Shown here one piece after another: positions 6,893-60,633 of a stretch of 64,000 nucleotides of DNA. The position numbers were made by a program, and so were the translations under genes. The notes beneath the pieces are model-generated. The model saw only the letters and a program-made list of their open reading frames with translations. It was not told where the DNA came from and made no database searches. The first letter of the stretch is position 1, and each line of letters opens with the position of its first letter. The stretch spans positions 76,768-140,767 of the forward strand of contig CAZPYM010000001.1 of assembly GCA_964590105.1 (NCBI GenBank), written 5' to 3'. The stretch comes from an uncultured Gammaproteobacteria bacterium. GTDB taxonomy: Bacteria > Patescibacteriota > Patescibacteriia > UBA11705 > JABHMO01.

Positions 6893-6932
6893 TATAGATT
6901 TTTTAAATTCTTATTATTATGAAAATAATTCA

Positions 6933-6958: not shown

Positions 6959-6976
6959 ATAATTTTAGTTGAAACA

Positions 6977-7005
6977 TTGACAAAAATCATTAGATGTGAT
7001 ATAAT
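6977..7005 (+). promoter_or_regulatory. near-perfect sigma70 promoter with an extended -10 element driving the 7061..8899 gene
   Basis: TTGACA (6977..6982), a 17-nt spacer, then TGaTATAAT (6997..7005). A GAGGGA Shine-Dalgarno sits at 7051..7056, 4 nt before the ATG. Confidence 0.6.
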
Positions 7006-7060
7006 ACCTTGTTAAGGGAAGGTCCTTTGACAATGGTCTAACTATTAATGGAGGGATGAA

Positions 7061-12122: not shown

Positions 12123-12255
12123 TTTACGTCGGATTTTGTGTTTCGTTGCTTTATTGTTCTTTTGTTTTCTTCCGCCATAGGCGGACTGGTGTTTTCTTGT
12201 TTTCTTGTTTTTGTGGTATAATAAATTTAGAAATAAAAATTCAAACAAATACAAT

Positions 12256-15392: not shown

Positions 15393-15508
15393 AAAATCCT
15401 CTAAAAAATTTTTGTTAATGAAAAAAACAGGCGCCAGTCAAGCGGCCTGTTTTATTGATAAAAATATGAATATCAGCTAGAATAATATCAATTGATATAA
15501 AGGCTTTT

Positions 15509-38229: not shown

Positions 38230-40308
38230 ATGGCAAAAAAAATGAAAAAGATCCACAAAGTTAGATTAACGGTCGCGGCCATTCTGGTATTGGCTTGCTT
38301 GTTGATGTTTTTTGACGCGCCGCAGGTATATGATAGGGCAATTGATTATTTAAATGGAAAAATGGGAACAGAATTTTCTCATTTCAAGAGTATTCCTTTC
38401 AGATTAGGATTAGATTTACAGGGAGGAACTCATTTGGTTTATGAAGCTGATACTGAGAAGATAGATTTTGCGGAAAAAAGCGATGCCGTGGAGGGCGTTC
38501 GCGACGTAATTGAGCGCCGAGTAAATGCTTTTGGCGTGGCCGAACCCGTGGTGCAAATAAATAAAGCCAAGGGCAAATGGCGGGTCATCGTGGAATTAGC
38601 TGGAATAAAAGATGTTAAACAGGCAATCGCCATGATCGGCGAAACGCCGCTTTTGGAATTCAAAGAAGAAAACACCGAACCGGCGCGCGAACTGACGCCG
38701 GAAGAACGGCAAGGTATGGAAAGTTTTAATAAAGAAGCGAAAGAAAAAGCAAATATTGCCATGAAGGAGGCATTGTCCGGCAAAGATTTTGCTGAAGTGG
38801 CCAAAGAATATTCAACAAGCTCTGATATTGATGTTCAGACAGAAGGCGACACTTTCACCGTCGGCAGCGCCTATGATCTTGGTTGGATCGACGGCAAAGG
38901 CGGCTATGCGTTTTTGTATGAAAAAGCCGGAGAAACAGAGCCGGGCCAGCTTTATCCAAAGTTAATTGAACAGCCAAACGGCTATTATATATTAAAAGTT
39001 GAGGACAAGCGTGAAACAGGAGAAGAAGTAAGGGCCAGTCATATTTTGATTTGTTACAACGGAGCTGAACGTTGCGACAAAGAAACAACCAAAGAAGAAG
39101 CAGAACAAAAAATTAAAGAAGTAAAAGAAAAGGCGACTGACAAAAACTTCGCTGATTTGGCAAAAGAATATTCCACCGGTCCGACCGGCCCTGACGGTGG
39201 CGACCTTGGCTGGTTCGCGCAGGGACAAATGGTCAAGGAGTTTGATGATACAGTTTTCAATATGGAAAAAGGCGCTATCTCTGATATTGTGGAAACTCAA
39301 TTTGGTTATCATTTAATTTTCAAAACCGATGAAAGGGCTCTGGAGGAATACAAGGTCACCAATGCTTATATTAAAACAAAAACTGAGGCTGATATTTTAC
39401 CGCCGGCTGATCAATGGAAAAATACGGAATTAACCGGTAAGCAATTGAAAGGTTCAAGAGTTGAATTTGATCCAAATACCAATCTGCCTCAGGTTGCCTT
39501 GCAGTTTAATGATGAAGGTAAAAAACTTTTTGCCGAAGTAACCACCCGCAATGTCGGCAAACCAGTGGCGATTTATCTTGACGGCGCGCCAATCAGCGTT
39601 CCTCGAGTAAACGAAGCTATTACCGGCGGAGAGGCGGTGATTACCGGCGATTTTGACGTTCAGGAAGCGAAATTATTGGTGCAAAGATTAAACGCGGGCG
39701 CCCTGCCTGTGCCAATTAAACTTGTCAGTCAGCAAACTGTTGGCGCGAGCCTTGGCAGTGATTCATTGCAAAAAAGTTTATTCGCGGGAATTGTCGGATT
39801 GATTTTGGTAATGCTATTCATGATTATATATTATCGATTGCCAGGTCTCTTGGCGGTAATTGCATTGATTATCTATGGCGTTGCTGTTTTGTTTATATTC
39901 AAAGTAATCCCAGTAACCCTGACCCTAGCCGGTATTGCCGGTTTTATCTTGTCAGTTGGTATGGCAGTGGACGCCAATGTGCTTATTTTCGAAAGATTAA
40001 AGGAAGAACTGCGCATGGGCAAGCCGCTCGGAGCGGCCATTGACGAAGGATTTAAGCGCGCCTGGACTTCTATTCGCGACGGCAATGTTTCCACTCTTAT
40101 TACCTGCTTTATTTTAATGTGGTTCGGCACGAGCATGATCAAAGGTTTCGCCATAACGCTTGGAATCGGCGTTTTGATGAGTATGTTCTCAGCCATTGTT
40201 GTTACTCGCCAATTTTTACATGTTTTTGTTAATCCAGAAAAGCAGAGCAAGCGCTTGTGGCTTTTTGGAGTAAAGAGTAATAAAGGAGATGATGCCAATA
40301 ATAAATAA
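38230..40308 (+). CDS. secD: protein translocase subunit SecD carrying an inserted parvulin-type PPIase region (one intact and one degenerate PpiC domain) in the periplasmic head
   Basis: SecD base (GLDLQGGTHLVYEAD…) and C-terminal TM bundle (…GMAVDANVLIFERLKEE…). In between: VRASHILI…GGDLGWFAQGQMVKEFDDTVFNMEKGAISDIVETQFGYHLIFKTDER (parvulin), preceded by a degenerate copy (…DFAEVAKEYS…DLGWID…GYYILKVEDKRE). Confidence 0.75.
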   Translation: MAKKMKKIHKVRLTVAAILVLACLLMFFDAPQVYDRAIDYLNGKMGTEFSHFKSIPFRLGLDLQGGTHLVYEADTEKIDFAEKSDAVEGVRDVIERRVNAFGVAEPVVQINKAKGKWRVIVELAGIKDVKQAIAMIGETPLLEFKEENTEPARELTPEERQGMESFNKEAKEKANIAMKEALSGKDFAEVAKEYSTSSDIDVQTEGDTFTVGSAYDLGWIDGKGGYAFLYEKAGETEPGQLYPKLIEQPNGYYILKVEDKRETGEEVRASHILICYNGAERCDKETTKEEAEQKIKEVKEKATDKNFADLAKEYSTGPTGPDGGDLGWFAQGQMVKEFDDTVFNMEKGAISDIVETQFGYHLIFKTDERALEEYKVTNAYIKTKTEADILPPADQWKNTELTGKQLKGSRVEFDPNTNLPQVALQFNDEGKKLFAEVTTRNVGKPVAIYLDGAPISVPRVNEAITGGEAVITGDFDVQEAKLLVQRLNAGALPVPIKLVSQQTVGASLGSDSLQKSLFAGIVGLILVMLFMIIYYRLPGLLAVIALIIYGVAVLFIFKVIPVTLTLAGIAGFILSVGMAVDANVLIFERLKEELRMGKPLGAAIDEGFKRAWTSIRDGNVSTLITCFILMWFGTSMIKGFAITLGIGVLMSMFSAIVVTRQFLHVFVNPEKQSKRLWLFGVKSNKGDDANNK

Positions 40309-40311
40309 TAT

Positions 40312-41214
40312 ATGTACAAAATAATTCAACGTAGAAAAATTTGGTTAACAGGTTCCTGTCTGGCTGTCGGGCTTAGCATAATCTTCTTGGCTGTCTGGGG
40401 GCTGAAGCTGGGTATTGATTTTACTGGTGGAAGCTTATTGGAAGTTAAATTTTTGCAGGAGCGGCCTGGTCCGCAGGATGTCCGCGCTATTGTTGATAAT
40501 CTTGAATTGGGAAGTGAAGTGGTTGTCCAGGCAACGGGTGACAAAAATATGATTGTCCGATTTCAGCAAATAGAAGAAGATACTCATCAACGCATATTGG
40601 AAAAATTAAAAGAAAAATATCCGGACAATATACAGGAAGAGCGTTTTGAAGCGATCGGGCCGTCAATTGGCGCAGAATTAAAAACCAAAGCAATATATGC
40701 GATTATCGTGGTGATTATTGCCATTGTTCTCTATATTGCCTGGGCTTTTCGCAAAGTTTCCTGGCCGGTCAAGTCCTGGAAATACGGATTGATTGCCATT
40801 GTTGCGCTGGTGCATGACATTATGATAACGCTCGGCGTTTTTGCTATCCTGGGCAGATTCGCGGGAGTAGAAGTCGGCTTGCCGTTTGTGGCCGCGCTTT
40901 TGACAATCCTTGGTTATTCGGTAAATGACACAATTGTAATCTTTGACCGCATTAGGGAAAATCTCGGCCGGCTGGTTAAAACAAATTTTGAAGAAGTTGT
41001 TAATAGGAGCGTTAATGAAACTCTGACGCGTTCAATCAATACGGCGCTCACGACTCTCCTCGTTCTTGTCGCGGTTTTCTTTTTTGGGGGCGTTTCAATC
41101 AAATATTTTGTTCTGGCTCTGATTATCGGTATATTTTCAGGGACATACAGTTCAATTTTCCTGGCCAGTCCGCTATTGGTGGTGTGGGAGAGGTGGAAGA
41201 AAAAAAGAGAATAG
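40312..41214 (+). CDS. secF: protein translocase subunit SecF
   Basis: SecF TM bundle with a conserved P-loop-like periplasmic domain; directly follows secD. Confidence 0.85.
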   Translation: MYKIIQRRKIWLTGSCLAVGLSIIFLAVWGLKLGIDFTGGSLLEVKFLQERPGPQDVRAIVDNLELGSEVVVQATGDKNMIVRFQQIEEDTHQRILEKLKEKYPDNIQEERFEAIGPSIGAELKTKAIYAIIVVIIAIVLYIAWAFRKVSWPVKSWKYGLIAIVALVHDIMITLGVFAILGRFAGVEVGLPFVAALLTILGYSVNDTIVIFDRIRENLGRLVKTNFEEVVNRSVNETLTRSINTALTTLLVLVAVFFFGGVSIKYFVLALIIGIFSGTYSSIFLASPLLVVWERWKKKRE

Positions 41215-41262: not shown

Positions 41263-41449
41263 TTGTAAATTCTTAACGTGGGTTTTTAGCTAGAGGTTGA
41301 GTTAGTTGGGTATTTTTAAGTGATTGTTTCGATTTGCGTGTATCAGCAGCACTTTTTGGAATATTGACAAAATTTAGTGATATGCCAAGATATATATAGA
41401 AACGTCTTTTTCATTTTGAAAAAGACCATTGCTGAGGCTGGAGGAGAAG

Positions 41450-41713
41450 ATGAAAACTGTGAAATGTGCGGGATGCAAAGGGACAGGGTATGCTGAAAAA
41501 AGGAGTTACCTCGGCCAATCGTCAGTGGGTATATGCTCCGGTTGTGGTGGTACGGGGAAAGTTCCTGCAGAGTACGACTGCTATGTTTGCCATGGCAAGG
41601 GCGGGTCTTATTATCAGACATACAATAAGGACTCAAAAGGGCGAATCACGAAAGGCAGTACCGTTTGGAAAAAATGCAACAATTGTGGAGGCTCGGGTAA
41701 AAAACACGTCTAG
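41450..41713 (+). CDS. small stand-alone DnaJ-type zinc-finger protein (four CxxCxGxG repeats)
   Basis: CAGCKGTG, CSGCGGTG, CYVCHGKG and CNNCGGSG; strong SD GGAGGAG at 41440..41446; start at MKTVKC. Confidence 0.6.
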   Translation: MKTVKCAGCKGTGYAEKRSYLGQSSVGICSGCGGTGKVPAEYDCYVCHGKGGSYYQTYNKDSKGRITKGSTVWKKCNNCGGSGKKHV

Positions 41714-41823
41714 GCGCAACTTTAGAATCGAATCAGGTTTTGTTTCTATGTTAATGTCGGCAGTGTTTTACATTGCATCTAAGAGAGTGTTTCAACCAGT
41801 AGGCTGAAACAAAGTCTTGAGTC

Positions 41824-42245: not shown

Positions 42246-43358
42246 ATGGAAAATGTAAACACAAAAATCAATTTTCAGGAGCTGCTTGTCAGCATGCTGT
42301 CAAAACTGTCTGAAAGAGAACAGGAAGTTTTGAAGCAGCGCTATCAGCTGCTCAGTGAATTAAAAAAACGATCAACCCTAAAACAGATTGGCGATATTTA
42401 TAATATCACGCGCGAGCGCGTGCGTCAGATCGAGAAAGAGGCGATTCGCAAAATCGTGGCTTTGGCTGGAACACCGGAATTTTCCGGTGAGCTTGGATCC
42501 ATTGAACAGGAAGTAAATGAATTTCTGGAAAAGCGCGGCGGTATGATTCGTGAAGATCATTTGCTTGACGAATATGTAAAACCAGTTCATCAGCTTGATT
42601 TTTTGCACACCAATGCTTTTGTTTTTGTTCTGGAAAATCTGTTTGATTCAGTGGACAAAGTTGACGGCCATGACAGTTTTCATAGTGTCTGGACGCTGAA
42701 AGCTTTGGACGTTGACCAGGTTGCGCAATTGATTTCAGCGCTGGAAAGTCAATTATCCACAGCTGGCCGAGTTCACAGCCAGGATGAAGTATTAAAATTG
42801 GCTTCAGACAGTTTATCAAGCGAATTGCAAATCTACCTGGATGGCTATATTGCAAAGCATGACGGTCTGACTATTCAACAAGTTTTACAGTCATATCTGC
42901 AGGCAACTTCAAAAATTGATAAAAATATTTTGGATCAGTGGGGTTTGTCCAGCTGGGAAACTATTCAGCCGAAAAAACTTAGCGGTAAAATACTTTTGGT
43001 TTTCGAAAAACATAATGCTCCTCTTCATTTCCGCCAGATTGCTGAAAAAATCAATGATGCTAATTTCGACTATAAAAAAATCTGCGCGGCTACAGTTCAT
43101 AACGAGCTGATTGCCAATGATGAGTTTGTCTTGATCGGACGCGGAATTTACGCCAAAAAAGATTGGGGTTATAGCGCGGGAACTGTGGCTGACATTATCA
43201 CGAAAATTTTGAGTGAGGCCGATGATTCGCTTGATAAAGACGCGATATACGAAAAAGTATTAAAGCAAAGACAAGTGAATAAGTCGACTATCTATTTGAC
43301 TTTGATCAATAAAGATAAATTTGTAAAGTCAGCTGACGGAAAATTTAGCTTAAAATAA
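42246..43358 (+). CDS. DNA-binding protein with an N-terminal sigma-70 region-4-like HTH followed by HARE-HTH-like winged-helix domains
   Basis: TLKQIGDIYNITRERVRQIEKEAIRKI (sigma70 r4 signature) at the N-terminus. Downstream …DQWGLSSWE… and …VLIGRGIYAKKDWGY… resemble HARE-HTH (RpoE-delta N-domain) signatures. Confidence 0.55.
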   Translation: MENVNTKINFQELLVSMLSKLSEREQEVLKQRYQLLSELKKRSTLKQIGDIYNITRERVRQIEKEAIRKIVALAGTPEFSGELGSIEQEVNEFLEKRGGMIREDHLLDEYVKPVHQLDFLHTNAFVFVLENLFDSVDKVDGHDSFHSVWTLKALDVDQVAQLISALESQLSTAGRVHSQDEVLKLASDSLSSELQIYLDGYIAKHDGLTIQQVLQSYLQATSKIDKNILDQWGLSSWETIQPKKLSGKILLVFEKHNAPLHFRQIAEKINDANFDYKKICAATVHNELIANDEFVLIGRGIYAKKDWGYSAGTVADIITKILSEADDSLDKDAIYEKVLKQRQVNKSTIYLTLINKDKFVKSADGKFSLK

Positions 43359-43377
43359 GATTTAAAATAAAAGAAAA

Positions 43378-43404
43378 TCCGGGCTTGCTCCCGGGTTTTC
43401 TTTT
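43378..43404 (+). terminator. intrinsic terminator after the sigma-r4/HARE-HTH gene; followed by a TTTGTGGTATAATAAA promoter element (43418..43433) identical to the one at 12209..12224
   Basis: ccggg-cttgct-cccgg followed by gttttctttt. Confidence 0.5.
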
Positions 43405-43465
43405 GTTTGCTTTATATTTGTGGTATAATAAACTTCGAAGATGATAATTCGTGAAAATTTAATTT

Positions 43466-45082
43466 ATGGATATTTTCGGGTTGCAGCTATCATTTGACTG
43501 GAGCTGGATATACAATCTCGGGACGCAGCCTCTGTATGTAATCATGTGGCATTTTTTTGTTAATGGCGGCTGGATTTTGGTTTTGGTTGTGCTTATTTAT
43601 GGCGGCATGATCAACTATGTTTATTGGATGCAGTGCAAGTTTGCGGCCAAACAAACTTATGTTTTTCTGGCCATAGACATTCCCAAGAATATTTTGCAAA
43701 CACCTCGGGCTGTCGAAAATATTTTCACGGCCATGGCCGGCGCGCAGCAGCCTCTTGATTGGCATGAAAAATATTTATTTGGCGAATTTCAACTTGGCTA
43801 CAGTCTAGAAATCGTCAGCATTGACGGCTTTATTCAATTTATAATTAGAACTCCGAGCCAGTTCCGCAATCTGGTGGAAGCGTCTGTTTATTCGCAATAT
43901 CCTGAAGCGGAAATTACTGAAGTTCATGACTATACTGCGGAAATTAATGTCAGCTTTCCAAGTGATGAATATAATTTATGGGGCGCTGACTTGGTTTTGG
44001 TGAAGCCTGATTATTATCCGATTAAAACCTATAAAGAATTTCAAGAAGAACTGGATAATGAATTCAAAGATCCAATGGCCGCTCTGCTCGAAGTAATGAG
44101 CACAATCGGTCCGGGCGAGCAGATTTGGTTTCAGCTTATGATTGCTCCGGCTGATATAGGTTGGGAAAGTACGGGCGTTAAAGCAGTAAATAAAATAATT
44201 GGTATTGAAGAAAAATACAAGAAAAATGTTCTTGACTATATTAGTGACGTGCCGCTCAAGGCCCTGGAAATTGTTGGCGATTCATTGTTTTCCAGCGAAG
44301 GAAAGGTTGCTGAACAAAAAAAAGATGAAAAGTTCAACATGATGTTTCTCGATCCGATTAAAAAAAGAGAAGTGGAGACTATTTTGCAGAAGGTTGATAA
44401 AAATTGTTTCATGTGCAAGTTGCGCTATGTTTATTTTGGTAAAAGAGAAGTATTTAAAAAAGGACTCGGCGTGTCCGGCGTAATGGGCGCGATCAAACAA
44501 TTTGGCGTCACGGGCTTGAACGCTTTTAAGCCGGGGAAAAACAAGACCCAGGCTAAGCTGTTTTTGAAAAAACCGCGCATGTCGGTCAAGCAGAATTTGA
44601 TGTTGAAAAATTTTAAAAAAAGAAATCCGGATACTTGCAAGGGGAAATACCTGCTCAGCGTGGAAGAATTAGCCACCTTGTTCCACTTCCCATATATTGA
44701 GGTCAAGGCTCCAATGGTCAAGAAGATCGAATCGAAAAAAGGCCATGCTCCGATTGGTCTGCCAGTGGAAGAAAAAGCGGCCGCTGGAGAAGTGGAAGAA
44801 ATTGAAGCGCCAACGCCCCTGGAGTTTGGTGAAAAAGTGCCAGTGGTTGATTTTGATAATGATTATTTTGAAGAGCGTTTTGCTGTTGACAAGTCCGGCC
44901 AGTCAGACAAAATCCGTAAACAGCAATTAGTGAAAAAATTGGAAGAAGCCGGTATTTTGAAAGCAACTAAAACCGATAATAATAATGATGATCAAGATGA
45001 TGCTCCTCCTTTTAACGTTGAAAATAAAATTGATTCCGAGGATGGTGATCAGGCCACACCTTCCAATCTTCCTTTTGCCTAA
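43466..45082 (+). CDS. membrane protein of unknown function (N-terminal TM helices, large soluble domain, acidic tail), encoded immediately upstream of a VirD4-like ATPase
   Basis: Hydrophobic N-terminus (WILVLVVLIYGGMINYVYWM); no recognised catalytic motif. Confidence 0.5.
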   Translation: MDIFGLQLSFDWSWIYNLGTQPLYVIMWHFFVNGGWILVLVVLIYGGMINYVYWMQCKFAAKQTYVFLAIDIPKNILQTPRAVENIFTAMAGAQQPLDWHEKYLFGEFQLGYSLEIVSIDGFIQFIIRTPSQFRNLVEASVYSQYPEAEITEVHDYTAEINVSFPSDEYNLWGADLVLVKPDYYPIKTYKEFQEELDNEFKDPMAALLEVMSTIGPGEQIWFQLMIAPADIGWESTGVKAVNKIIGIEEKYKKNVLDYISDVPLKALEIVGDSLFSSEGKVAEQKKDEKFNMMFLDPIKKREVETILQKVDKNCFMCKLRYVYFGKREVFKKGLGVSGVMGAIKQFGVTGLNAFKPGKNKTQAKLFLKKPRMSVKQNLMLKNFKKRNPDTCKGKYLLSVEELATLFHFPYIEVKAPMVKKIESKKGHAPIGLPVEEKAAAGEVEEIEAPTPLEFGEKVPVVDFDNDYFEERFAVDKSGQSDKIRKQQLVKKLEEAGILKATKTDNNNDDQDDAPPFNVENKIDSEDGDQATPSNLPFA

Positions 45083-45099
45083 GAAACATTAATACGATT

Positions 45100-46857
45100 A
45101 TGACGGAAAAGATAACCCCATTTGCTTTTACAAATTTTCGAAATGCGCGCAAGCGCTTTGGCATCAAAACCGACGATCGACGCCGGCATATGTATATAAT
45201 TGGAAAAACCGGTATGGGTAAATCAGTTTTAATTGAAAACATGGTTTATTCTGATATTGCCAATGGAAATGGCTGTTGTCTGGTGGATCCGCACGGCGAT
45301 TCGGCTGAGCTGATGATCAATTGCATTCCTCCAAATAGAATCAATGATGTGATATATATTAATCCGGCGGATTTGGAATATCCGATTGCTTTTAATGTGC
45401 TGGAAAAAGTGGATAATAAATATCGCCACTTGGTGGCTTCGGGCCTGGTCGGAGTTTTCAAAAAAATCTGGGCGGACAGTTGGGGACCTCGTTTGGAATA
45501 TATTTTGCGCAATACCATATTGGCACTTCTGGACTATCCCGACAGCACGCTCCTTGGTGTCAATCGCATGTTGGTGGACAAGGAATACCGCAAAAAAGTA
45601 ATTGCCAAAGTTCAGGATCCAGTGGTAAAAATGTTTTGGCAGGATGAATTTTCCAAATATAATGAAAAATTTCTAACTGAAGCGATCGCGCCTATTCAAA
45701 ATAAAATTGGCCAATTCTTATCAACTTCTCTAATTAGAAATATTGTCGGTCAGGTGAAGTCAACAATTGATTTGCGCAAGATTATGGATGAAGGCAAGAT
45801 TGTCATTCTGAATCTTTCAAAGGGCCGGATCGGCGAGGATGCTTCCGCCTTACTCGGCGCCATGATTATTACCAAAATTCAGCTAGCCGCTATGAGCCGC
45901 GTGGACATGCCGGAAACGACGAGAAAAGATTTTTATCTTTATGTAGACGAATTCCAAAACTTTGCCACAGAATCATTTGCCAATATTTTATCAGAAGCCA
46001 GAAAATATCATTTGTGCTTAACAATTGGCCATCAATACATCGGCCAGCTCGAGATTGGTGGTAATACGGTTGTTCGTGATGCAATATTCGGCAATGTCGG
46101 CACAATGATTGTTTTTCGGGTTGGCGCAGCTGACGCGGAATTTTTATCCAGGGAATTTGCCCCGCATTTTACAGAAGAAGATTTAGTTAACTTGCCGAAA
46201 TATAATGTATATTTGAAATTAATGATTGATGGCGTTGCTTCAGATCCTTTTAGCGCCACCACCCTGCCGCCAATTTCCCAGAAAACCTCGAGTGAAGAAA
46301 GCGTGATCAAAGTAACCAGAGAAAGATACGCCAAAGAAAGGGATGTGGTGGAAGACAAAATTACTCGTTGGAGCGGTGTGGAAACCGATGCAATGCTGGA
46401 AAAAATGGAAATGGACATTGTGCACAAAAAAGCGCAAAAAATTATTAGCAAAAAATTGGATTTTTTGGCCAGCATGCGAGGTGAAAATCAGCGCGAAGAA
46501 GAGCAAACGCCGGAAGAAAAAGTAATAATAGCAAAAAAAGAAGGAGACGGAAAAGAAGATCTAGCTACAGGGGACAAGGATGAAATTGTTAATATTGTAA
46601 AATGCGACAGTTGTGGAGCCAAAACAAAAATTAATTTTAATCCTGATCCCCGCCGCCCGGTCTATTGCAAGGATTGTCTTAAGGATTTTCGGCGCAAACA
46701 AGCGCTCGAGGAAAATATAAGTCAAAGAAGACAGGATACTCGCGGCGCGGCAGCTCCGGCCGGAGGCGACCGGCCACGAGCCAAGGAAGTTTCTTTGTCT
46801 GATTTGCAAAAAAATAAACCTTCTTCGTTTCGAGCTCCCAAAAGAGAGCGCTCTTAA
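45100..46857 (+). CDS. VirD4/TraG/TrwB-like (type IV coupling protein family) P-loop ATPase lacking the N-terminal TM anchor, with a C-terminal CxxC…CxxC zinc ribbon
   Basis: Walker A IIGKTGMGKS followed by VDPHGD (compare DPKGE in VirD4), Walker B LYVDEFQNF, and a C-terminal CDSCGAKTKINFNPDPRRPVYCKDC. Confidence 0.6.
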   Translation: MTEKITPFAFTNFRNARKRFGIKTDDRRRHMYIIGKTGMGKSVLIENMVYSDIANGNGCCLVDPHGDSAELMINCIPPNRINDVIYINPADLEYPIAFNVLEKVDNKYRHLVASGLVGVFKKIWADSWGPRLEYILRNTILALLDYPDSTLLGVNRMLVDKEYRKKVIAKVQDPVVKMFWQDEFSKYNEKFLTEAIAPIQNKIGQFLSTSLIRNIVGQVKSTIDLRKIMDEGKIVILNLSKGRIGEDASALLGAMIITKIQLAAMSRVDMPETTRKDFYLYVDEFQNFATESFANILSEARKYHLCLTIGHQYIGQLEIGGNTVVRDAIFGNVGTMIVFRVGAADAEFLSREFAPHFTEEDLVNLPKYNVYLKLMIDGVASDPFSATTLPPISQKTSSEESVIKVTRERYAKERDVVEDKITRWSGVETDAMLEKMEMDIVHKKAQKIISKKLDFLASMRGENQREEEQTPEEKVIIAKKEGDGKEDLATGDKDEIVNIVKCDSCGAKTKINFNPDPRRPVYCKDCLKDFRRKQALEENISQRRQDTRGAAAPAGGDRPRAKEVSLSDLQKNKPSSFRAPKRERS

Positions 46858-46860
46858 GCT

Positions 46861-47559
46861 ATGGCAAAAATTAGATTAAATAAATATATTGCAGATTGCG
46901 GAATAGCTTCGCGCCGGAGTGCGGAGCGTTTTATATTACAAGGGTTAGTAAAAGTAAATGGAGATTTGGTAACAGAACTTGGGACAAAGATTGACGTGGA
47001 AAATGACCGCGTCGAAGTCAGCGATCAACTAATCAACCAATCAACCAATCAACCAGTTGTCCTGATGCTGAATAAACCGGCCGGTTATGTTTGTACATCA
47101 AGAAAATTTAAAGGTGAGAAAAATATTTTGGATTTAATTAATCTCGAACAGCGGGTTTATCCTGTCGGTCGTCTGGATAAGGATTCAACAGGCCTCCTGC
47201 TCCTGACCAACGACGGCGATTTGGCTTTGAAATTAACGCACCCTCGTTACGAAAAGGAAAAAGAGTATGAAGTGGAAGTTGATCATGAGATTAGCAGTGA
47301 ATTTATCGATGAAATGCAACAGGGCGTCACGTTGGAGGACGGAACAACCTTGCCGGCAAAGGTAAAACAGCTTTCTTATACTGCGTTTTCAATTGTTTTG
47401 GGACAGGGAAAAAAACGGCAGATCAGGCGGATGTGCCAGGAACTTGGGTACCGGGTAGTGGGATTAAATCGAGTCCGTATCAATAAACTGGAGCTCGGAG
47501 ATTTGGCTGTCGGCGATTATCGGATTTTATCGGAAAAAGAAATTGCTTTATTAAAATAG
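46861..47559 (+). CDS. RsuA/RluB-family 16S/23S rRNA pseudouridine synthase
   Basis: S4 domain N-terminus and the catalytic GRLDKDSTGLLLLTNDG motif. Confidence 0.75.
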   Translation: MAKIRLNKYIADCGIASRRSAERFILQGLVKVNGDLVTELGTKIDVENDRVEVSDQLINQSTNQPVVLMLNKPAGYVCTSRKFKGEKNILDLINLEQRVYPVGRLDKDSTGLLLLTNDGDLALKLTHPRYEKEKEYEVEVDHEISSEFIDEMQQGVTLEDGTTLPAKVKQLSYTAFSIVLGQGKKRQIRRMCQELGYRVVGLNRVRINKLELGDLAVGDYRILSEKEIALLK

Positions 47560-55059: not shown

Positions 55060-55998
55060 ATGGACAACAACATCACTCAAACCTACCGTGACATCAAGTT
55101 AATCAAAATTCAGGGTGCGACCAATATTGCTCTGGCCGTTGGCAAAGCTTTGAAAAAATATGCCAAGGATTTAACAGCAATAAGCAAGCGCGATTTTGTA
55201 CAGAAAATTTCCAGCGCCGGCAAGTATTTGGTTGGCGCGCGAGACACCGAACCCATGGCTGACAATGTTGTTGAGTTTATTGTTTATCAATTGAACAAAA
55301 CAAAAACGACTGAAGTCAGGGAATTAAAAAGTGTTCTGGCTGATTCAATTGATTATTTTTTTGATTTGGTAAATAAAAATGATTTACAGATTATTAAACA
55401 CGGCGAGCGGTTGATCAAATTCGGCGACAAAGTTTTTACTCATTGCCATTCCTCAACGGTTATGAAGGTTTTGCTGGCCGCTAGAAAAAACAAAAAGCGC
55501 TTTGAAGTTTTTCAAACTGAAACCCGGCCGCTTTATCAGGGGCGCAGAACTGCGGCCGAACTTCTGAAAAATAAGATTAAAGATACTATGGTTGTTGATT
55601 CGGCCGCGCCGTATTTAATCAGCAAAATAAGCGGCCCTAGATTTCAAATTGACAAATTAATAATCGGCTGTGACGCTATCAGCCGCGACGGATCATGCGT
55701 CAATAAGGTCGGCAGTTTCGGCCTGGCGCTCGTGGCTTTTTTGAATAAAGTGCCGGTTTATGTTGTGACGCAAGCTTTGAAAATAAATGAAGAAGCTAAA
55801 AATTTAAAGGCGATTAAAATTGAACAGCGTAGCGCCCGCGAAGTCTGGAATGGCGCGCCGAAAGATTTGAAAATTTATAATCCGGCTTTTGATAAAGTGC
55901 CGGTCGAACTAATTACCGGGTATATTTGCGAATTTGGGGTAGTGAAACCGGAAAACCTGATCAAGAAAATCAAAAAAGATTATAGTTGGTTGTGGTAA
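55060..55998 (+). CDS. ribose-1,5-bisphosphate isomerase (eIF-2B alpha/beta/delta family, e2b2)
   Basis: eIF-2B-like fold with …IIGCDAISRDGSCVNKVGSFGLALVA…; sits in the cluster with RuBisCO III and AMP phosphorylase. Confidence 0.65.
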   Translation: MDNNITQTYRDIKLIKIQGATNIALAVGKALKKYAKDLTAISKRDFVQKISSAGKYLVGARDTEPMADNVVEFIVYQLNKTKTTEVRELKSVLADSIDYFFDLVNKNDLQIIKHGERLIKFGDKVFTHCHSSTVMKVLLAARKNKKRFEVFQTETRPLYQGRRTAAELLKNKIKDTMVVDSAAPYLISKISGPRFQIDKLIIGCDAISRDGSCVNKVGSFGLALVAFLNKVPVYVVTQALKINEEAKNLKAIKIEQRSAREVWNGAPKDLKIYNPAFDKVPVELITGYICEFGVVKPENLIKKIKKDYSWLW

Positions 55999-56049
55999 AA
56001 AAAAGATAAACATTTTTTATTTTACTTTATAATCATTAACTAAAATATT

Positions 56050-56898
56050 ATGTCACATGAAATAATGCCAATCTTTGAAGGATATGGTGAAAAAGACAAA
56101 GAAATTTTTGGAGGAGAATTTAAATTATTAAATTTAGGTAAGAAAGAGGGTAGCTTTAAGCCAACAGATCCCAAATTTTATGAAAGGATAGAGGGTGTTA
56201 GAAAAAAATTAGGATTAAAGTACATTTTTGCACCAAGCTTAGCTTTTACAAAACGAACAGCATCAATGACTAACAAAGGTGAGGAAAAGTTTATGTTTGG
56301 ATCAGAAGGCAAGGATGATAAAGTCGCTACTGAAGGTATTATGAGAACAGAAGAAAAAGCTGATGGCGGAATAGTTTTTTTGGATGATTTAGAAAAGAAA
56401 GGTATAAATCCAAATGAAGTTGGAATCGCTGGTTTTAATGCTGATTGTCCATTTATTGTTGGTTATGATGAAAAGAAAAGAGCGATGTTCATGCTTCATG
56501 CTGGCTTAGCGTGTCTGCAAAAGACAGGTGAAAGAAATCATGAAACTATATTCGAAAAGGTAGTGAAGGATCATGATTTAGATCCAAAAAACATTAAAAT
56601 ATTTGTAACCGGAGGAATTCAAAAGTGTTGTTATGGGCGAGATGATCAGGTTTTTCCTGATGTTATGAAAGCCTGGGGCGTGCGTTTCGGTTCAGTTGCT
56701 ACCGAAGGTTCCAGAGAAGGTCAAACTTCAATGAATTTGTTAGCTTTGATTTACAATGATTTACTACGAGTAGGTGTTAATTCCGATAATATTGATGTGA
56801 ATGAAAAGTGTACCTGTTGTGATGGTGAACATTGGAGTAATGTTAAAGGTGATCAAGAAAGAAATTTAGTTTTGGTTAGACCAAACTTTTCTGAATAA
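56050..56898 (+). CDS. YfiH/PgeF (DUF152, LACC1-like) family purine-nucleoside enzyme candidate; AT-richer than its neighbours
   Basis: …FNADCPFIVGYDEKKRAMFMLHAGLACL… aligns with the YfiH …TADCLPVL…AAAHAGWRGL… core; C-terminal …EKCTCCDGE… matches …DRCTYTENE…. Confidence 0.4.
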   Translation: MSHEIMPIFEGYGEKDKEIFGGEFKLLNLGKKEGSFKPTDPKFYERIEGVRKKLGLKYIFAPSLAFTKRTASMTNKGEEKFMFGSEGKDDKVATEGIMRTEEKADGGIVFLDDLEKKGINPNEVGIAGFNADCPFIVGYDEKKRAMFMLHAGLACLQKTGERNHETIFEKVVKDHDLDPKNIKIFVTGGIQKCCYGRDDQVFPDVMKAWGVRFGSVATEGSREGQTSMNLLALIYNDLLRVGVNSDNIDVNEKCTCCDGEHWSNVKGDQERNLVLVRPNFSE

Positions 56899-56937
56899 AA
56901 CAAAAAAAATCCCCAATTGTCAAGTGGGAAAAAGTGA

Positions 56938-57363
56938 GTGGAGATTTATATGAAAATCAAATGTATTATTTTTGATTTTTACAATGTCTTGTACCCTTTT
57001 ACTGCTGAAGCTGAAAAGGTTGTTGAATATTGCCGAAGTAAAGGATTAAAGCTGGCGGCGGTTTCCAGTTTATCCCCAGAAAAAGTTGATGAAATTGCCA
57101 AACATTATAAAATAGATACAGTGCTGGCTTCCTGGAACTTTGGTCTGCACAAAACTCAGCCTGAAATTTATCAGCGATTGCTCGGCCGGCTGGAACTAAA
57201 GGGTTGCGAATGCCTGATGGTTGACGATGAGCAGATCCGGCTTTCGGCGGCGAAAAGCTGCGGAATAAATACGGTTTGGTTGAAATTGGTGGAAGGTGAT
57301 AAACTTGAAACAACGGATTGCGTAATCAGCGAACTAGGGGAACTAAGTGAATTAGCGAATTAG
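56938..57363 (+). CDS. small HAD-superfamily hydrolase-like protein (variant motif I, DFYN instead of DxDG)
   Basis: IIFDFYNVL (motif I-like) and MVDDEQIRLSAAKSCGINTV (motif IV-like). Confidence 0.45.
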   Translation: MEIYMKIKCIIFDFYNVLYPFTAEAEKVVEYCRSKGLKLAAVSSLSPEKVDEIAKHYKIDTVLASWNFGLHKTQPEIYQRLLGRLELKGCECLMVDDEQIRLSAAKSCGINTVWLKLVEGDKLETTDCVISELGELSELAN

Positions 57364-57395
57364 CGAATTGGAGAATTGGCGAATTGGAGAGTGGA
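57325..57395 (+). repeat. tandem 8-9-bp repeats (GAACTAAG/GAATTAGC/GAATTGGC…) spanning the HAD gene's 3' end and the intergenic region
   Basis: gaactaggggaactaagtgaattagcgaattagcgaattggagaattggcgaattggagag. Confidence 0.4.
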
Positions 57396-57659
57396 AATAA
57401 AATATAAATAAGCCGAGGAGCTCCGAGCGGAGCGAGGAGCGACGAGGCGGCCGTCCGCCGGGACATACGCTTTCCCCCTCCCGACGGAGCGCAAGGGAAA
57501 GCGGAAATAATTATTGAATTGAAAAGCGGAGTACAGGGAGGGGGACAAAGGGGGTGGGTTCTTGCGGTAAGCGATTATATGCGGCGGATTCGTGAAAGGG
57601 CGGTTTCAGAAATTTCGATGAACTTAATTAACCTAATTAATCTTAATTAACTTTATTAT

Positions 57660-58943
57660 ATGCCCCACGTCGGATTTATTGACCCCATGTATCAGCCAAA
57701 TTACAAAAAAGAGATTGTGGCCACTTTTCATATGGAGCCGGAAGTGGCTTTTAATGAAGCGGCGGAGGCAGTGGCCGGTGAAAGTTCAATTGGTTCGTGG
57801 ACTGATTTATCCACGCTAAAGCCGGAAGTTGCCCAAAAAATTAAAGCCGTGGTTTTTTATTTAAATCAAAAACAAAAAATTATTAAAATCGCTTATCCTT
57901 TGGATTTGTTTGAACTCGGAAGCATTCCACAATTTCTTTCGAGCGTGGGCGGTAATGTTTTTTCAATGAAAGCCGTGAAAAATCTGCGATTGTTGGATGT
58001 GGAATTCCCGGAAAAATATATTAAAAGTTTTCAAGGGCCGGCGCTTGGCATTGAGGGTATTAGAAAAATATTGAAAAATAAAGACCGGCTTATTCTTGGC
58101 AGTATTATTAAACCCAAAGTCGGATTAACTGCGGCTGAACACGCGGAGGTTGCCTATGAAGTGTGGCGGAATGGAATTGACCTGGTAAAAGACGATGAAA
58201 ATCTGACCGACATGGTTTTTAATCGATTTGAAGAGCGGGTAAAAAGAACTTTGGCCAAAAGAAAAAAAGCAGAAGAGGAAACAGGAAAAATTAAAATATA
58301 TGCAGTGAATATTACCGCACCGGCAGATATCATGCTGGAACGAGCCAAGTTTGTGAAGGCGCAGGGCGGCCGTTGTGTAATGGTGGATATAATTTCAACC
58401 GGCCTCGACAATGTTCAGTATTTACGTAAGCAAAATTTAGGTTTGATAATTCACGGGCACCGAGCGGGCCATAGCACTTTTACCCGCAATCCGCGGCACG
58501 GTATTACCATGCTCGTCATTGCCAAACTTGCCAGATTGGCTGGAGTTGATCAGCTTCATACTGGCACAGTCGTTGGCAAGATGGAAGGTTCAGTGGATGA
58601 TGTCTTGACGACTAATGAGCTGTTGCGGGAAGACTGGCAGCATTATCATGTTCTTCAAGAAAATTGGACGTCATTAAAACCAACCATGCCCATTGCTTCA
58701 GGCGGACTGCATCCGGGCCTTTTGCCAAAACTGGTTGAAATCCTTGGCAGCGATTTAATCGCTAATTTTGGCGGCGGGGTGCATGGACATCGAGATGGCT
58801 CGGCAGCCGGCGCTCGCGCCTGTTTTCAGGCGGCTGAGGCCATTGCAGCGGGCAAATCACTGCGCGATCAGGCCAAATTTCATCCTGAACTGAAAATAGC
58901 GCTGGATCAGTGGGGCGGTGTGAAATATAAATATGAGAGGTGA
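57660..58943 (+). CDS. rbcL: ribulose-1,5-bisphosphate carboxylase large subunit, form III (II/III-like) type
   Basis: RuBisCO large-subunit catalytic motifs (…GGLHPG…, …GGGVHGHRDGSAAGARA…); about 427 aa with no small-subunit gene nearby. Confidence 0.8.
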   Translation: MPHVGFIDPMYQPNYKKEIVATFHMEPEVAFNEAAEAVAGESSIGSWTDLSTLKPEVAQKIKAVVFYLNQKQKIIKIAYPLDLFELGSIPQFLSSVGGNVFSMKAVKNLRLLDVEFPEKYIKSFQGPALGIEGIRKILKNKDRLILGSIIKPKVGLTAAEHAEVAYEVWRNGIDLVKDDENLTDMVFNRFEERVKRTLAKRKKAEEETGKIKIYAVNITAPADIMLERAKFVKAQGGRCVMVDIISTGLDNVQYLRKQNLGLIIHGHRAGHSTFTRNPRHGITMLVIAKLARLAGVDQLHTGTVVGKMEGSVDDVLTTNELLREDWQHYHVLQENWTSLKPTMPIASGGLHPGLLPKLVEILGSDLIANFGGGVHGHRDGSAAGARACFQAAEAIAAGKSLRDQAKFHPELKIALDQWGGVKYKYER

Positions 58944-59133
58944 AGAGGATATAGGATGAACAGGATAAATAGGAGATTAGAAACTGGAAATCAGAAATTG
59001 GGGTTACTGTCTTTTCTTTCTATTTCACATCTCACGTCTCACTTCTCACTTCTCATGTCTTACTACTTTTTCGCGTTTGTAATTTGTTATTTGCTTGTAA
59101 TTTGTTATTTGTAATTTGTAATTTTATTATTTT

Positions 59134-60633
59134 ATGTCGTATTATCTAAAATGTAAAAAACTGGATTTTTCCACCGGCGGGCCATTGGTGGTTCTTTTGA
59201 ATGAAGAAGAAGCGCAAAACTACGGTATTTATCCGGGAGACAGAGTTCAAATCGGCTGGGACAAAAAAAAGAAAGAGATTGCCGACGTGGATGTTTCGGA
59301 TTCGAAAGTCCAACCTGGCGAGATCGGATTATTTGAGGAAATTTGGAAAAAACACAATGTTGAAAGCGGCGACGTGGCTGAAATAACGTTGGAATCGCGG
59401 CCGCTGTCAATGGAAACTCTGCGAAAAAAAATGCTTGGCAAGCCGGCCAATTACAAAGAAATGTATGCGCTGATCAAAGATATTGCTGACGGCAGAATGG
59501 GTAAAATTGAAACAACATATTACGCGGCCAGCGGATTTGTTAAACCTTTTTCTGACCAGGAACTTTATTTTGTGGCCAAGGCCATGGCGGAAACCGGTGA
59601 ACAATTCAATTATAAAAAAATAAAAGTGGCAGACAAACATTCGGTCGGCGGCTTGGCCGGCAATAGGATGACGCCGATTATTGTTTCAATAATTGCTTCA
59701 CTTGGAATTTACATTCCGAAAACATCTTCTCGCGCCATCACTTCGCCTGCAGGAACTGCGGATATGATGGAAGTTCTTTGCCCCGTAAGTTTTACCTTGC
59801 CGGAAATAAAAAAAATTGTGCGCAAAACAAAAGGCTGCCTGGTCTGGGGTGGCGGACTGCGCATGGCGCCGGCTGATGACAAAATTATTAAAGTTTCCCG
59901 GCCGTTGGCAGTGGAATCATATGATAAAATGATTGTCAGTATTATTGCCAAGAAAGTGGCGACCGGTGTTGACTATTTAGTTGTGGATGTTCCTGTAGGC
60001 GCGACCTGTAAAGTGCCGGACATGAAACATGCCAGGCAAATTGAGAAAAAGTTTCATGCTCTGTGCAAAAGATTTAATATTAAAGTAAAAGTGGTAATAA
60101 CTCCAGCCAAAGAACCGATCGGTCGGGGAATAGGACCGGCGCTCGAAGCTAGGGATGTTCTGCGCGTTCTTCAGCAACATAAATTCAAGCCGCTTGATCT
60201 GGAAAATAAATCTTGCAAGCTGGCCGGCAAGCTTCTCGAATTAAAAGGGTTTTGTCGCGCTGGCAAGGGAATTTTAATCGCCAAGCAGCAAATAAAAAAC
60301 GGCGAGGCTTGGAAAAAAATGAATCAGATTATTATTGCTCAGGGAGGCAAAGTAGATATTAATTCCGAAGAAGTAATGCAGGAAGTGGAACGCTATGAGA
60401 TTCATGCCAAAAGAAAAGGGAAAATAGCTTTTGTTGATAATAAAGAAATAAATGAGGTGTGCATGAACCTGGGCGCGCCGATTGATAAATACGCCGGTAT
60501 TCATACGCACGTGAGATATGGCCAAAAAGTGAAAAAAGGTCAGAAGCTTTTCACCATGTACGCCAGCAGTCATGATCGCCTAAAACTGGGCGTGGCCGCC
60601 GCCGGTAACAATATAATTTTCCACATCAATTAG
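59134..60633 (+). CDS. AMP phosphorylase (thymidine-phosphorylase family with N-terminal extension)
   Basis: Pyrimidine-nucleoside phosphorylase core (…HSVGGLAGNRMTPIIVSIIASLG…TSSRAITSPAGTADMMEV…) plus an N-terminal extension, next to RuBisCO III and e2b2. Confidence 0.75.
   Translation: MSYYLKCKKLDFSTGGPLVVLLNEEEAQNYGIYPGDRVQIGWDKKKKEIADVDVSDSKVQPGEIGLFEEIWKKHNVESGDVAEITLESRPLSMETLRKKMLGKPANYKEMYALIKDIADGRMGKIETTYYAASGFVKPFSDQELYFVAKAMAETGEQFNYKKIKVADKHSVGGLAGNRMTPIIVSIIASLGIYIPKTSSRAITSPAGTADMMEVLCPVSFTLPEIKKIVRKTKGCLVWGGGLRMAPADDKIIKVSRPLAVESYDKMIVSIIAKKVATGVDYLVVDVPVGATCKVPDMKHARQIEKKFHALCKRFNIKVKVVITPAKEPIGRGIGPALEARDVLRVLQQHKFKPLDLENKSCKLAGKLLELKGFCRAGKGILIAKQQIKNGEAWKKMNQIIIAQGGKVDINSEEVMQEVERYEIHAKRKGKIAFVDNKEINEVCMNLGAPIDKYAGIHTHVRYGQKVKKGQKLFTMYASSHDRLKLGVAAAGNNIIFHIN

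Follow-up and report, generated by a model that had tools for sequence, protein, structure and literature searches.

At the membrane face of the R388 machine, the N-terminal domain (NTD) of VirB4 touches VirB3, the VirB8 tails and neighbouring subunits. In TrwK, this domain comprises residues 15-400 (PMC9259494). Within pGO1-type and patescibacterial type IV secretion systems (T4SSs), a remote homologue of the N-terminal part of VirB4, TrsD, is encoded by a separate gene beside the ATPase, and TrsD homologues mostly adjoin virB4 (1,664 of 2,272) (PMC12102498). Orphan homologues of the coupling proteins (T4CPs) have already been published for Patescibacteria, and proteins such as the ATPase described here have been counted among the VirD4-type T4CP homologues (PMC12102498). 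The partner gene of this ATPase, the fold of the partner and the gene split reported below were not found in the searchable literature.

We analysed a patescibacterial stretch of 64,000 nucleotides (the window) with two neighbouring open reading frames (ORFs), P1 (43466..45082, 538 aa) and P2 (45100..46857, 585 aa), both on the + strand like every feature given below and separated by 17 nt between the P1 stop codon and the P2 start; an earlier note on this DNA had placed both ORFs exactly. With a probability of roughly 0.6, the pair is a membrane-anchored T4SS-superfamily ATPase split in two genes, acting as a trans coupling ATPase for a patescibacterial T4SS. As described previously, it stands between a gene for a Sigma70 region-4/HARE-HTH DNA-binding protein (42246..43358, 370 aa; Pfam Sigma70_r4 E=2.4e-15, HARE-HTH E=2.7e-6) and one for an RluF/RsuA-family rRNA pseudouridine synthase (46861..47559; S4/PseudoU_synth_2). 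The former protein matches sigma factors in region 4 alone and is not a complete sigma factor. Further upstream, secD, fused to PpiC-type rotamase domains, and secF (38230..41214; Pfam) form the upstream end of a syntenic block. A strong intrinsic-terminator-like hairpin (43365..43408; 19 pairs, GC core CCGGG/CCCGG, T-run) ends the sigma-r4/HARE-HTH gene, and just 3' of it lies TTTGTGGTATAAT (43417..43429), with TG at 43421-43422 and TATAAT at 43424-43429, which reads as an extended -10 element (TGnTATAAT) and is a candidate promoter for a P1-P2(-rluF-like) unit. Of the separate promoter claimed earlier, this extended -10 stands, with a putative function; no -35 element accompanies it, which is why a consensus promoter scan did not list it. 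The pseudouridine synthase gene starts 3 nt past the P2 stop codon and is probably cotranscribed with P1-P2 at this locus; it is a non-conserved part of the block, and the downstream genes differ among other genomes. Elsewhere the window carries housekeeping genes, namely UvrD, Ddl, ClpB, RecR, DnaB, MurC/B, SecA, SecDF, an ABC transporter, RNase J, e2b2, RuBisCO and an AMP-phosphorylase-like gene. No relaxase, VirB4, pilin, VirB3/VirB6/VirB8-type partner or other T4SS gene occurs in the 64-kb window, so that the pair is an orphan within it; this label does not hold beyond the window, as T4SS loci of the lineage lie elsewhere (PMC12102498) and a fused paralogue is T4SS-adjacent.

By sequence and by model, P2 is a VirD4/TrwB-type coupling-protein ATPase with intact catalytic motifs. 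The profile search suggested in the earlier note as a check of this identity returned Pfam TrwB_AAD_bind (42.8 bits, cut-off 20.5; E=4e-11, residues 24-344) and TraG-D_C (27.4 bits, cut-off 22) above their cut-offs, as well as DUF87 (39.9, cut-off 23.2), while PDB sequence searches found TrwB at E=1e-8 to 1e-9 and DotL at 3e-5. Foldseek on the AF2 model (pLDDT 78) ranked TrwB first (E=2.8e-14, TM 0.62-0.67 normalised by TrwB length), then Cagbeta, then HerA and DotL. These similarities are far beyond chance, and P2 has more than 8000 homologues. Walker A (GKTGMGKS, residues 35-42, 45202..45225), the DPHGD box (residues 63-67), Walker B (YLYVDE, residues 279-284, 45934..45951) and the LTIGHQY region with its HQ sensor, all recognized before, are present and invariant among 33 homologues, including G35, K36, T37, G38, G40 and K41 in Walker A and D283 and E284 in Walker B. 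An all-alpha domain (residues ~106-216, 45415..45747) is inserted into the RecA-like core according to the secondary structure of the AF2 model, as in the TrwB AAD arrangement. P2 contains no hydrophobic segment (top Kyte-Doolittle 19-residue window 1.45; threshold 1.6), in agreement with the reported lack of N-terminal transmembrane (TM) segments. The C-terminal zinc ribbon or treble clef (residues 502-526, 46603..46677) exceeds the cut-offs of both PF23477 zf_Tbcl_2 (E=1.5e-10, 41 bits, cut-off 27) and TIGR04272 (E=9.7e-11, 41.2, cut-off 36), its spacing being CxxC-x17-CxxC and not the x18 given originally. Its cysteines C502, C505, C523 and C526 are invariant in the 33 homologues, the ribbon is modelled at pLDDT ~85, and a basic disordered tail of net charge +8 follows (46678..46854; family median +9, 33/33 members). 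Ribbon and tail are apparently additions of the split lineage and together suggest nucleic-acid binding.

P1 belongs to DUF8128 (PF26449), a family of 3261 clusters at 50% identity. The precomputed match of the identical protein P0001 is graded 'weak', and most of the 120 P1 homologues listed carry PF26449; our local Pfam copy, which may lack this model, gave no match. Residues 1-37 are conserved in homologues, and we therefore preferred the 538-aa start over the 501-aa gene call of the database. Kyte-Doolittle windows of at least 1.6 start only at residues 23-37, indicating a single hydrophobic segment (TM residues ~23-55, 43532..43630), which the AF2 model extends as one unbroken helix over residues 23-62. 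P1 thus supplies a membrane segment as proposed, though not several helices, and its flank charges of -2 and +2 predict an N-out/C-in topology. The cytoplasmic alpha/beta domain behind it (residues ~63-410, some 345 residues; 43652..44695), which closes with an invariant EELAxxxHFP motif, adopts in the model (core pLDDT ~90) the fold of the VirB4 NTD: the best nine Foldseek matches were all TrwK chains, at ~10% identity and with undetectable sequence similarity, and the search returned no HerA match. The idea that P1 stands in for the canonical two-TM N-terminus of VirD4 was consequently abandoned, P1 being a single TM segment plus a VirB4-NTD fold. An acidic, disordered and hypervariable linker leads to the C-terminal short linear motif PSNLPFA (residues 532-538, 45059..45079), in which P532, N534, L535 and P536 vary little or not at all. 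Of 38 family members, 35 carry this PxNLPΦ tail, which terminates 66 P1-like ORFs and zero others among 1578 ORFs of at least 100 aa from 80 loci. Linker and terminal peptide likewise appear to be an addition of the split lineage, and the peptide is a candidate docking element. Docking of the tail to the P2 ribbon was considered and rejected as unsupported, since tail and ribbon co-occur weakly (39/49 vs 3/7).

Single-chain proteins of DUF8128 plus ATPase occur in Patescibacteria and Bacillus phages; about 90 proteins that join PF26449 to PF10412 are known among Patescibacteria and relatives of phage G, and phrog_5156 spans P1 and P2 colinearly. P1 residues 30-435 cover positions 12-389 of the fused chain, and P2 residues 2-423 cover positions 388-817, which sets the split junction at about P1 residue 435 and P2 residue 2. 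Because the pair is colinear with these homologues, it represents a true gene split, bearing out the proposal that a coupling-type ATPase had been divided into membrane and ATPase polypeptides. The fused proteins (phrog_5156, phage G gp156 and patescibacterial proteins of 725-990 aa such as P0479 and P0423) share both modules with P1-P2, and also their order; the ATPase halves of the patescibacterial ones are 39-58% identical to P2 (gp156, 32%), and identity between the N-terminal halves and P1 is 23-31%. They differ in being single polypeptides, P0479 and gp156 without any TM segment; the zinc ribbon is missing from those listed, and the PxNLPΦ tail from the seven examined. The genomic contexts of the fused proteins (T4SS cluster, dnaX, phage genomes) also differ from that of P1-P2. 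The gene of P0479, a paralogue from another genome that is 55% identical to P2, adjoins a PrgI and VirB4-like (P-loop_TraG/AAA_10) T4SS cluster near dnaA, whereas other fused paralogues lie beside dnaX or near gyrBA and not near T4SS genes, and the Bacillus phage homologues adjoin a VirB4-like gene (phage G) or a Replic_Relax gene (CP-51).

The neighbourhood check proposed in the earlier note covered 80 species-level genomes, with 77 loci testable for P2 and 66 with enough upstream sequence. P2 lay directly downstream of P1, on the same strand and with short gaps, in 61 of the 77, and a reciprocal check from P2 homologues held in 3/3 with the same gene order. The note had named FtsK/HerA-type best matches or an unconserved pair as arguments against its reading; the best match was TrwB, and adjacency was the rule. 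Mere chance adjacency of two unrelated proteins is effectively refuted by these same-strand neighbours and by the colinear single-chain homologues, even though P1 has no P2 beside it at 16 of the 77 loci. At those 16 loci, P1 and its tail are kept with no P2 within at least 3.9 kb, and P1 may have a partner or role beyond P2. The conserved block reads secD-secF-(sigma-r4/HARE-HTH)-P1-P2: at 36/66 loci the P1 homologue has SecF within 3 kb on its upstream side, the sigma-r4/HARE-HTH gene is directly upstream at 44/66, and the latter gene is kept in 14 of 19 loci without adjacent P2. The conserved neighbours of the pair are Sec components, not T4SS components. P1-P2 is a conserved, vertically inherited core feature of a large, class-level lineage of Patescibacteria; a patchy, transfer-like distribution with variable insertion sites was not seen in these genomic data.

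The earlier note had also offered a defence or mobile-remnant reading. We consider it very improbable that the pair is an anti-phage module, or what is left of a decayed mobile element or prophage, with a HerA/MADS-like ATPase. The best PADLOC match of P2 is mad8 (E=3.7e-16), HerA matches are weak, and Bacillus phages carry fused homologues. Against this, P1 matched nothing in the same PADLOC scan of P1 and P2, no other MADS component or defence island was recognised among the annotated flanking genes, which are housekeeping and syntenic across species, and the adjacent genes include no nuclease, Sir2, methylase, integrase or transposase. The chromosomal position beside secDF recurs in dozens of species-level genomes, GC content and skew of the P1-P2 region are unremarkable, TrwB beats HerA as structural match, and a search of 2.9 million viral contigs for split-type P1 gave next to nothing, namely one weak partial match. 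The Sec neighbourhood, in turn, would fit a protein-export accessory whose ATPase delivers or pulls proteins at the Sec translocon or aids membrane-protein biogenesis: SecF or the sigma-r4 gene is immediately upstream at 62/66 loci, and SecA is also close, both in this window and at locus L093. We nevertheless regard this as improbable, because P1 is set apart from the upstream genes by a candidate terminator and a separate candidate promoter, synteny within a class can be inherited gene order without functional meaning, and the fused paralogues are not beside sec genes; moreover, we know of no Sec accessory with this fold.

More weight is due to a T4SS-independent housekeeping translocase working on DNA or RNA, alone or with another channel, which we consider a rather unlikely but tangible alternative; FtsK-like chromosome or plasmid segregation, nucleic-acid uptake or export, or another core process are possible roles. 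The location among core housekeeping genes whose synteny is stable throughout a class-level lineage, the fused paralogues by dnaX or near gyrBA, and a zinc ribbon and basic tail suggestive of nucleic-acid binding are all consistent with it. Most patescibacterial T4CP homologues are far from virB4 (148 of 5,713 are near it), and in S. epibionticum the T4CP homologue is non-essential and dispensable for epibiotic growth although T4SS genes are essential, so that a T4SS-independent role is possible; exaptation was raised by the authors (PMC12102498). On the other side, P2 clearly resembles TrwB/VirD4 more closely than FtsK (FtsK_SpoIIIE 13.6 bits, cut-off 24) and lacks the FtsK gamma domain, the fold modelled for P1 is that of a T4SS-specific domain, and genuine conjugative systems commonly encode their T4CP far away from virB4 (PMC12102498). 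Two further points favour coupling to a T4SS in trans, namely the T4SS-adjacent position of the 55%-identical fused P0479 and the presence of T4SS loci in ABY1-class genomes (PMC12102498).

Acting as a trans coupling ATPase, P1-P2 would most likely form a membrane-anchored hexameric coupling and translocation ATPase, with P2 as a hexameric ring by analogy with TrwB, VirB4 and the single-chain relatives. P1 would be bitopic, with its N-terminus outside and its VirB4-NTD-like domain in the cytoplasm, and would hold the P2 ring at the cytoplasmic membrane face. The two proteins would meet at the domain-domain interface that lies within one chain in the fused proteins, and the PxNLPΦ tail may strengthen this contact. 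The most plausible role of zinc ribbon and basic tail is to recruit a substrate, either a nucleic acid or a nucleoprotein, a reading consistent with the order of ribbon then basic tail and with a DNA-binding protein gene as conserved neighbour. ATP hydrolysis would then drive this substrate towards a membrane channel, most likely a patescibacterial MPF-FATA-like T4SS encoded elsewhere in the genome.

Among known systems, HerA/FtsK-clade translocases share the ASCE P-loop superfamily with P2, with HerA structures at Foldseek E~1e-10, below TrwB and Cagbeta; the pair has neither a HAS-barrel nor a NurA, Sir2 or nuclease partner. T4CPs (TrwB of R388, VirD4, TraD/TraG, Cagbeta, DotL) and P2 have in common a RecA-like nucleotide-binding domain with an inserted all-alpha domain, Walker A/B, the DPxG[DE] box and the TraG-D_C region, TrwB being the best P2 match by sequence and structure. 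P2 differs from them in lacking the TM domain of typically two helices, in place of which the separate, VirB4-NTD-like P1 would provide a one-TM anchor, and in its extra C-terminal zinc ribbon and basic tail; no association with a relaxase or T4SS (VirB4) locus was found within 64 kb. All NCBIfam T4CP equivalogs score far below their cut-offs (best TIGR03743, 43.4 bits, cut-off 366; NF045973, VirD4-like, CD1115 family, 35.4, cut-off 250). VirB4/TrwK and P1 share the VirB4-type NTD fold according to the model, whereas the ATPase half P2 is T4CP-type: AAA_10 (16.4, cut-off 27.5), P-loop_TraG (17.1, cut-off 25.8) and TIGR00929 (19.3, cut-off 643) stay below their cut-offs, no VirB4 chain is among the best 50 Foldseek matches, and against the VirB4-like protein of a patescibacterial T4SS the P-loop alone aligns (E=0.039). 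By gene arrangement, TrsD and VirB4 present the same kind of split as P1 and P2, the difference being that P1 adjoins a T4CP-type ATPase in a secDF context. Given the VirB4-NTD fold of P1, the whole P1-P2 unit is, as modelled, a VirB4 architecture with a VirD4-type motor.

Both ORFs described in the earlier note lie on the forward strand at the places claimed, the membrane protein P1 (538 aa) at 43466-45082 and, after an intergenic gap of 17 nt, the ATPase P2 (585 aa) at 45100-46857. P2 carries the Walker A (GKTGMGKS), DPHGD, Walker B (YLYVDE) and LTIGHQY motifs and no hydrophobic segment, in agreement with the proposed lack of N-terminal transmembrane (TM) segments. The predicted C-terminal zinc ribbon is likewise present and scores above the cut-offs of Pfam zf_Tbcl_2 and TIGR04272, but its spacing is CDSC-x17-CKDC rather than x18; a basic tail follows (charge +8; family median +9). 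In profile searches, P2 exceeded the Pfam cut-offs for TrwB_AAD_bind (42.8 bits, cut-off 20.5) and TraG-D_C (27.4, cut-off 22) as well as that for DUF87, and stayed below those for FtsK, AAA_10 and P-loop_TraG. All scores against the NCBIfam equivalogs of type IV coupling proteins (T4CPs) fell far under the cut-offs, and P2 is therefore a divergent family member. TrwB was the best match in a PDB sequence search (E~1e-9), with DotL second, and again ranked first in Foldseek (E=2.8e-14; TM score 0.62-0.67, normalized by TrwB's length), followed by Cagbeta and then HerA and DotL, with no VirB4 chain among the top 50 matches. In the AF2 model (pLDDT 78), a helical insert (residues ~106-216) interrupts a RecA-like core; beyond residue ~425, a long helix leads through a disordered linker to the ribbon. 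Catalytic residues are invariant across 33 homologs, and alignment with the VirB4-like ATPase of a patescibacterial type IV secretion system (T4SS) cluster was limited to the P-loop. Together, the profile scores, search ranks, predicted structure and invariant catalytic residues indicate that P2 is a putative, catalytically competent T4CP-type motor without the family's N-terminal membrane domain. The proposed VirD4/TraG-like identity thus stands, as TrwB tops both the PDB sequence and the Foldseek search, with HerA lower in the latter.

P1 is predicted to be membrane-anchored as suggested, but through a single hydrophobic segment (residues ~23-55) instead of several TM helices. Its N-flank is acidic and its C-flank basic, so that the large domain is expected to be cytoplasmic. 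Homologs share conserved residues over positions 1-37, and the database's 501-aa start was therefore rejected in favor of the longer one. Neither the local Pfam, NCBIfam and PADLOC profiles nor PDB sequences (phmmer and profile searches) gave a match, and precomputed annotation assigns P1 and its homologs to PF26449 (DUF8128). A profile search against 1.84 billion representatives returned 3261 clusters, the best 150 of which are stand-alone proteins without exception (369-691 aa). Aligning the P1 family with gp155, a VirB4-like protein of Bacillus phage G, by hhalign yielded no meaningful match (probability 0.5%); the link between P1 and VirB4 is a purely structural one, predicted from models. 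In the R388 machine, VirB3 wraps around the VirB4 N-terminal domain (NTD), which also binds VirB8 tails and through which VirB4 dimerizes (PMC9259494).

That the two genes represent one protein split into a membrane and an ATPase polypeptide, as the earlier note had supposed, is borne out by colinear mapping onto single-chain homologs. Within the phage family phrog_5156 (824 positions), P1 matches positions 80-289 and P2 positions 407-805, and gp156 of phage G (825 aa) is a single-chain fusion of DUF8128 and ATPase. Using gp156 as query, we identified about 90 patescibacterial proteins (725-990 aa; Berkel-, Falkow-, Sacchari- and Gottesmanbacteria) in which PF26449 and PF10412 are fused. Mapping of P1 (residues ~30-435) and P2 (residues ~2-423) onto the fused proteins is colinear and contiguous, and P2 is 39-58% identical to the ATPase halves of the patescibacterial fusions. 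The seven fused proteins examined have no P1-type linker and tail, and the zinc-ribbon domain is absent from all fused proteins among the gp156 matches listed; among the best 120 P2-type proteins, nearly all carry the ribbon and none DUF8128. The split lineage is marked by lineage-specific appendages, namely the linker and PxNLPΦ tail of P1 and the ribbon and basic tail of P2. Overall, we assign the structural identity of P1 and P2 and their split relationship a probability of about 0.85-0.9.

Lytic Bacillus phages carry conjugation-like ATPase modules. In phage G (L003, 1196-5338), the VirB4/TraG-P-loop-like ATPase gp155 is encoded immediately upstream of the fused gp156; in phage CP-51 (L005, 2753-6314), the 911-aa relative gp91 is followed at once by a Replic_Relax (PF13814) protein. 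The N-terminal half of CP-51 gp91 was rejected as a P1 homolog, and because its pairwise BLAST match was not significant, we claim DUF8128 fusions for phage G-type and patescibacterial proteins only.

At its C-terminal end, P1 has an acidic, hypervariable linker (charge -14 here) and then the PxNLPΦ peptide, which is found in 35 of 38 family members. Of the 1578 loci ORFs with a length of 100 aa or more, 66 end in this pattern, all of them P1-like, and P1 is the sole ORF ending in it among 118 scanned in the window. Judged by sequence, it is the signature of a candidate docking peptide. Docking of the tail onto the ribbon was dropped as a specific claim, as co-occurrence is weak (39/49 versus 3/7) and the NLPΦ tail is kept where P2 is not adjacent; given this weak correlation, we do not claim mutual binding of the two.

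Scanning one genome per species identified at least 589 P1 relatives, of which the best 80 loci were analyzed. The pair is kept as neighbors: in 61 of these 80 loci, P2 immediately follows P1 in the same orientation; three others were untestable, and in the remaining 16 P2 is missing over at least 3.9 kb. These 16 form a sub-group with a glycosyltransferase-like gene after P1, and most retain the sigma-r4/HARE-HTH gene and the tail of P1. In a sub-clade of 13 loci (L027, L028, L030, L033, L036, L040, L043, L052, L054, L055, L057, L058 and L069; region ~11300-15500 in each), the P1 homolog retains the NLPΦ tail and the upstream sigma-r4 gene and is followed by a GT4-like glycosyltransferase (MKIGIDARFYGP...) and two 640-965-aa proteins in place of P2; the glycosyltransferase follows directly except in L052, where one small ORF intervenes. 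Upstream of P1, a sigma-r4/HARE-HTH gene or secF was present in 62 of 66 loci, and three loci reached from P2 homologs repeat the order secD-secF-(sigma-r4)-DUF8128-P2, with varying downstream genes. A function of the pair tied to these Sec neighbors is unlikely. This arrangement forms a core block inherited vertically within the Falkow-/Kuenen-/Uhr-/Magasanik-/Buchananbacteria group, which we take to be class ABY1 (GTDB taxonomy). A mobile remnant, also considered in the earlier note, or a viral origin is unlikely in view of this synteny, a base composition that is even over the region and the near-absence of split-type P1 from 2.9 million viral contigs. The suggested defense role is unlikely as well: P2 does match PADLOC mad8, but we reject this reading on genomic context and vertical conservation.

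In the window, the pair is flanked, as described, by genes for a Sigma70_r4 and HARE-HTH protein and an RluF/RsuA-type pseudouridine synthase. The rluF-like gene was rejected as a module member because downstream genes differ among genomes. The upstream gene (42246-43358) encodes a 370-aa protein with sigma-70 region 4 alone, at the N-terminus, plus HARE-HTH, and therefore falls short of a full sigma factor. Among the upstream neighbors of P1 it shows the most consistent conservation, even without an adjacent P2; it may serve the system as a DNA-binding accessory or simply be syntenic. The promoter motif proposed before P1 was recovered as a candidate extended -10 element (TGnTATAAT, 43421-43429), preceded by a strong hairpin that resembles a terminator (43365-43408). 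Again as noted, the window contains neither T4SS nor relaxase nor pilin genes; the remainder are housekeeping genes.

Several observations concern these other genes. SecD (38230-40308) contains inserted PpiC-type rotamase (parvulin) domains, a fusion shared by all related loci examined. Two overlapping forward-strand ORFs in different frames occupy 41429-41807; the 94-aa ORF at 41429-41713 matches the DnaJ CXXCXGXG zinc-finger domain (34.2 bits, cut-off 32.7), the database call (105 aa, no Pfam match) is seemingly in the other frame, and this small gene may thus be mis-called. At 55060-60633, an e2b2/IF-2B-family gene (ribose-1,5-bisphosphate isomerase-like), a RuBisCO large subunit gene and an AMP/pyrimidine-nucleoside-phosphorylase-like gene are adjacent, which corresponds to the archaeal-type pathway of AMP/nucleoside salvage, a typical feature of CPR genomes; this trio also lies downstream of the pair in L093. 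A 612-aa forward-strand ORF without Pfam match (7061-8899), which is annotated as a gene on the source contig, is covered almost entirely by a 542-aa reverse-strand ORF (6965-8593).

In the best-supported reading, P1 and P2 would form a membrane-anchored hexameric ATPase combining VirB4 architecture with a VirD4-type motor. P1 would organize the P2 ring and tether it to the membrane, a nucleic-acid or nucleoprotein substrate would be recruited through the ribbon and basic tail, and the motor would pass it to a channel, most likely a T4SS encoded elsewhere. We infer such coupling to be plausible, at slightly less than even odds. Its main rival, a housekeeping translocase operating independently of any T4SS, appears doubtful. 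Improbable, in our estimate, is that DUF8128+T4CP-type ATPases are a surviving VirB4-VirD4 intermediate, joining a VirB4-type N-terminal domain to a VirD4-type motor in fused or split form, with the split form exapted and equipped with PxNLPΦ as its own docking peptide. If so, the ribbon-bearing split form of ABY1-type Patescibacteria would serve as a core machine, inherited vertically and independent of any T4SS, for moving nucleic acid at or through the membrane of host-dependent cells, and would recruit a partner through PxNLPΦ.

Orphan T4CP homologs in Patescibacteria were already known. The accessible parts of PMC12102498 and of the 2025 FEMS review PMC12857230 do not mention the partner gene, and the searchable literature contained neither DUF8128 (PF26449), nor its module, fused or split, on patescibacterial and some phage T4CP-type ATPases, nor a conserved secDF-linked split operon with zinc ribbon and tail peptide; the VirB4-NTD fold predicted for DUF8128 was not found there either. 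Patescibacteria (CPR) account for a large share of bacterial diversity and depend on host cells, and a T4SS is essential in their sole genetically tractable member. Their thousands of orphan VirD4-like genes, so far counted without explanation, would thereby gain an anatomy, a VirB4-like N-terminal module that is either fused or a separate membrane-anchored gene, and in a whole lineage the split form, together with ribbon and specific tail peptide, has become fixed within a conserved block linked to secDF. DUF8128, so far a domain without known function, gains a putative fold and a partner, and a concrete candidate emerges for a link between the two T4SS ATPase families. The P1-P2, tail-receptor and ribbon-nucleic acid interactions are testable and bear on macromolecule exchange between ultra-small epibionts and their hosts.

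According to PMC12102498, 2,918 patescibacterial genomes hold 5,713 VirD4-type homologs, only 148 of them near virB4; the homolog of S. epibionticum is non-essential, exaptation is not excluded by the authors, and the T4SS loci of ABY1 include comF, recG and radA. In the patescibacterial T4SS cluster L090, the VirB4-like ATPase (6264-8122, reverse strand) is called as two consecutive ORFs (387 and 231 aa) with complementary P-loop_TraG/AAA_10 matches, either through an error (frameshift or assembly) or because this gene, too, is truly split. Fused DUF8128 copies were found beside dnaX or near gyrBA, and one, the paralog P0479 (55% identical to P2), ~8 kb from dnaA/dnaN. The P0479 gene is oriented divergently from a cluster of PrgI (VirB3-like), a VirB4-like ATPase and an M23 peptidase, which corresponds to the patescibacterial T4SS locus type described by Quinonero-Coronel et al. 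2025 (PMC12102498).
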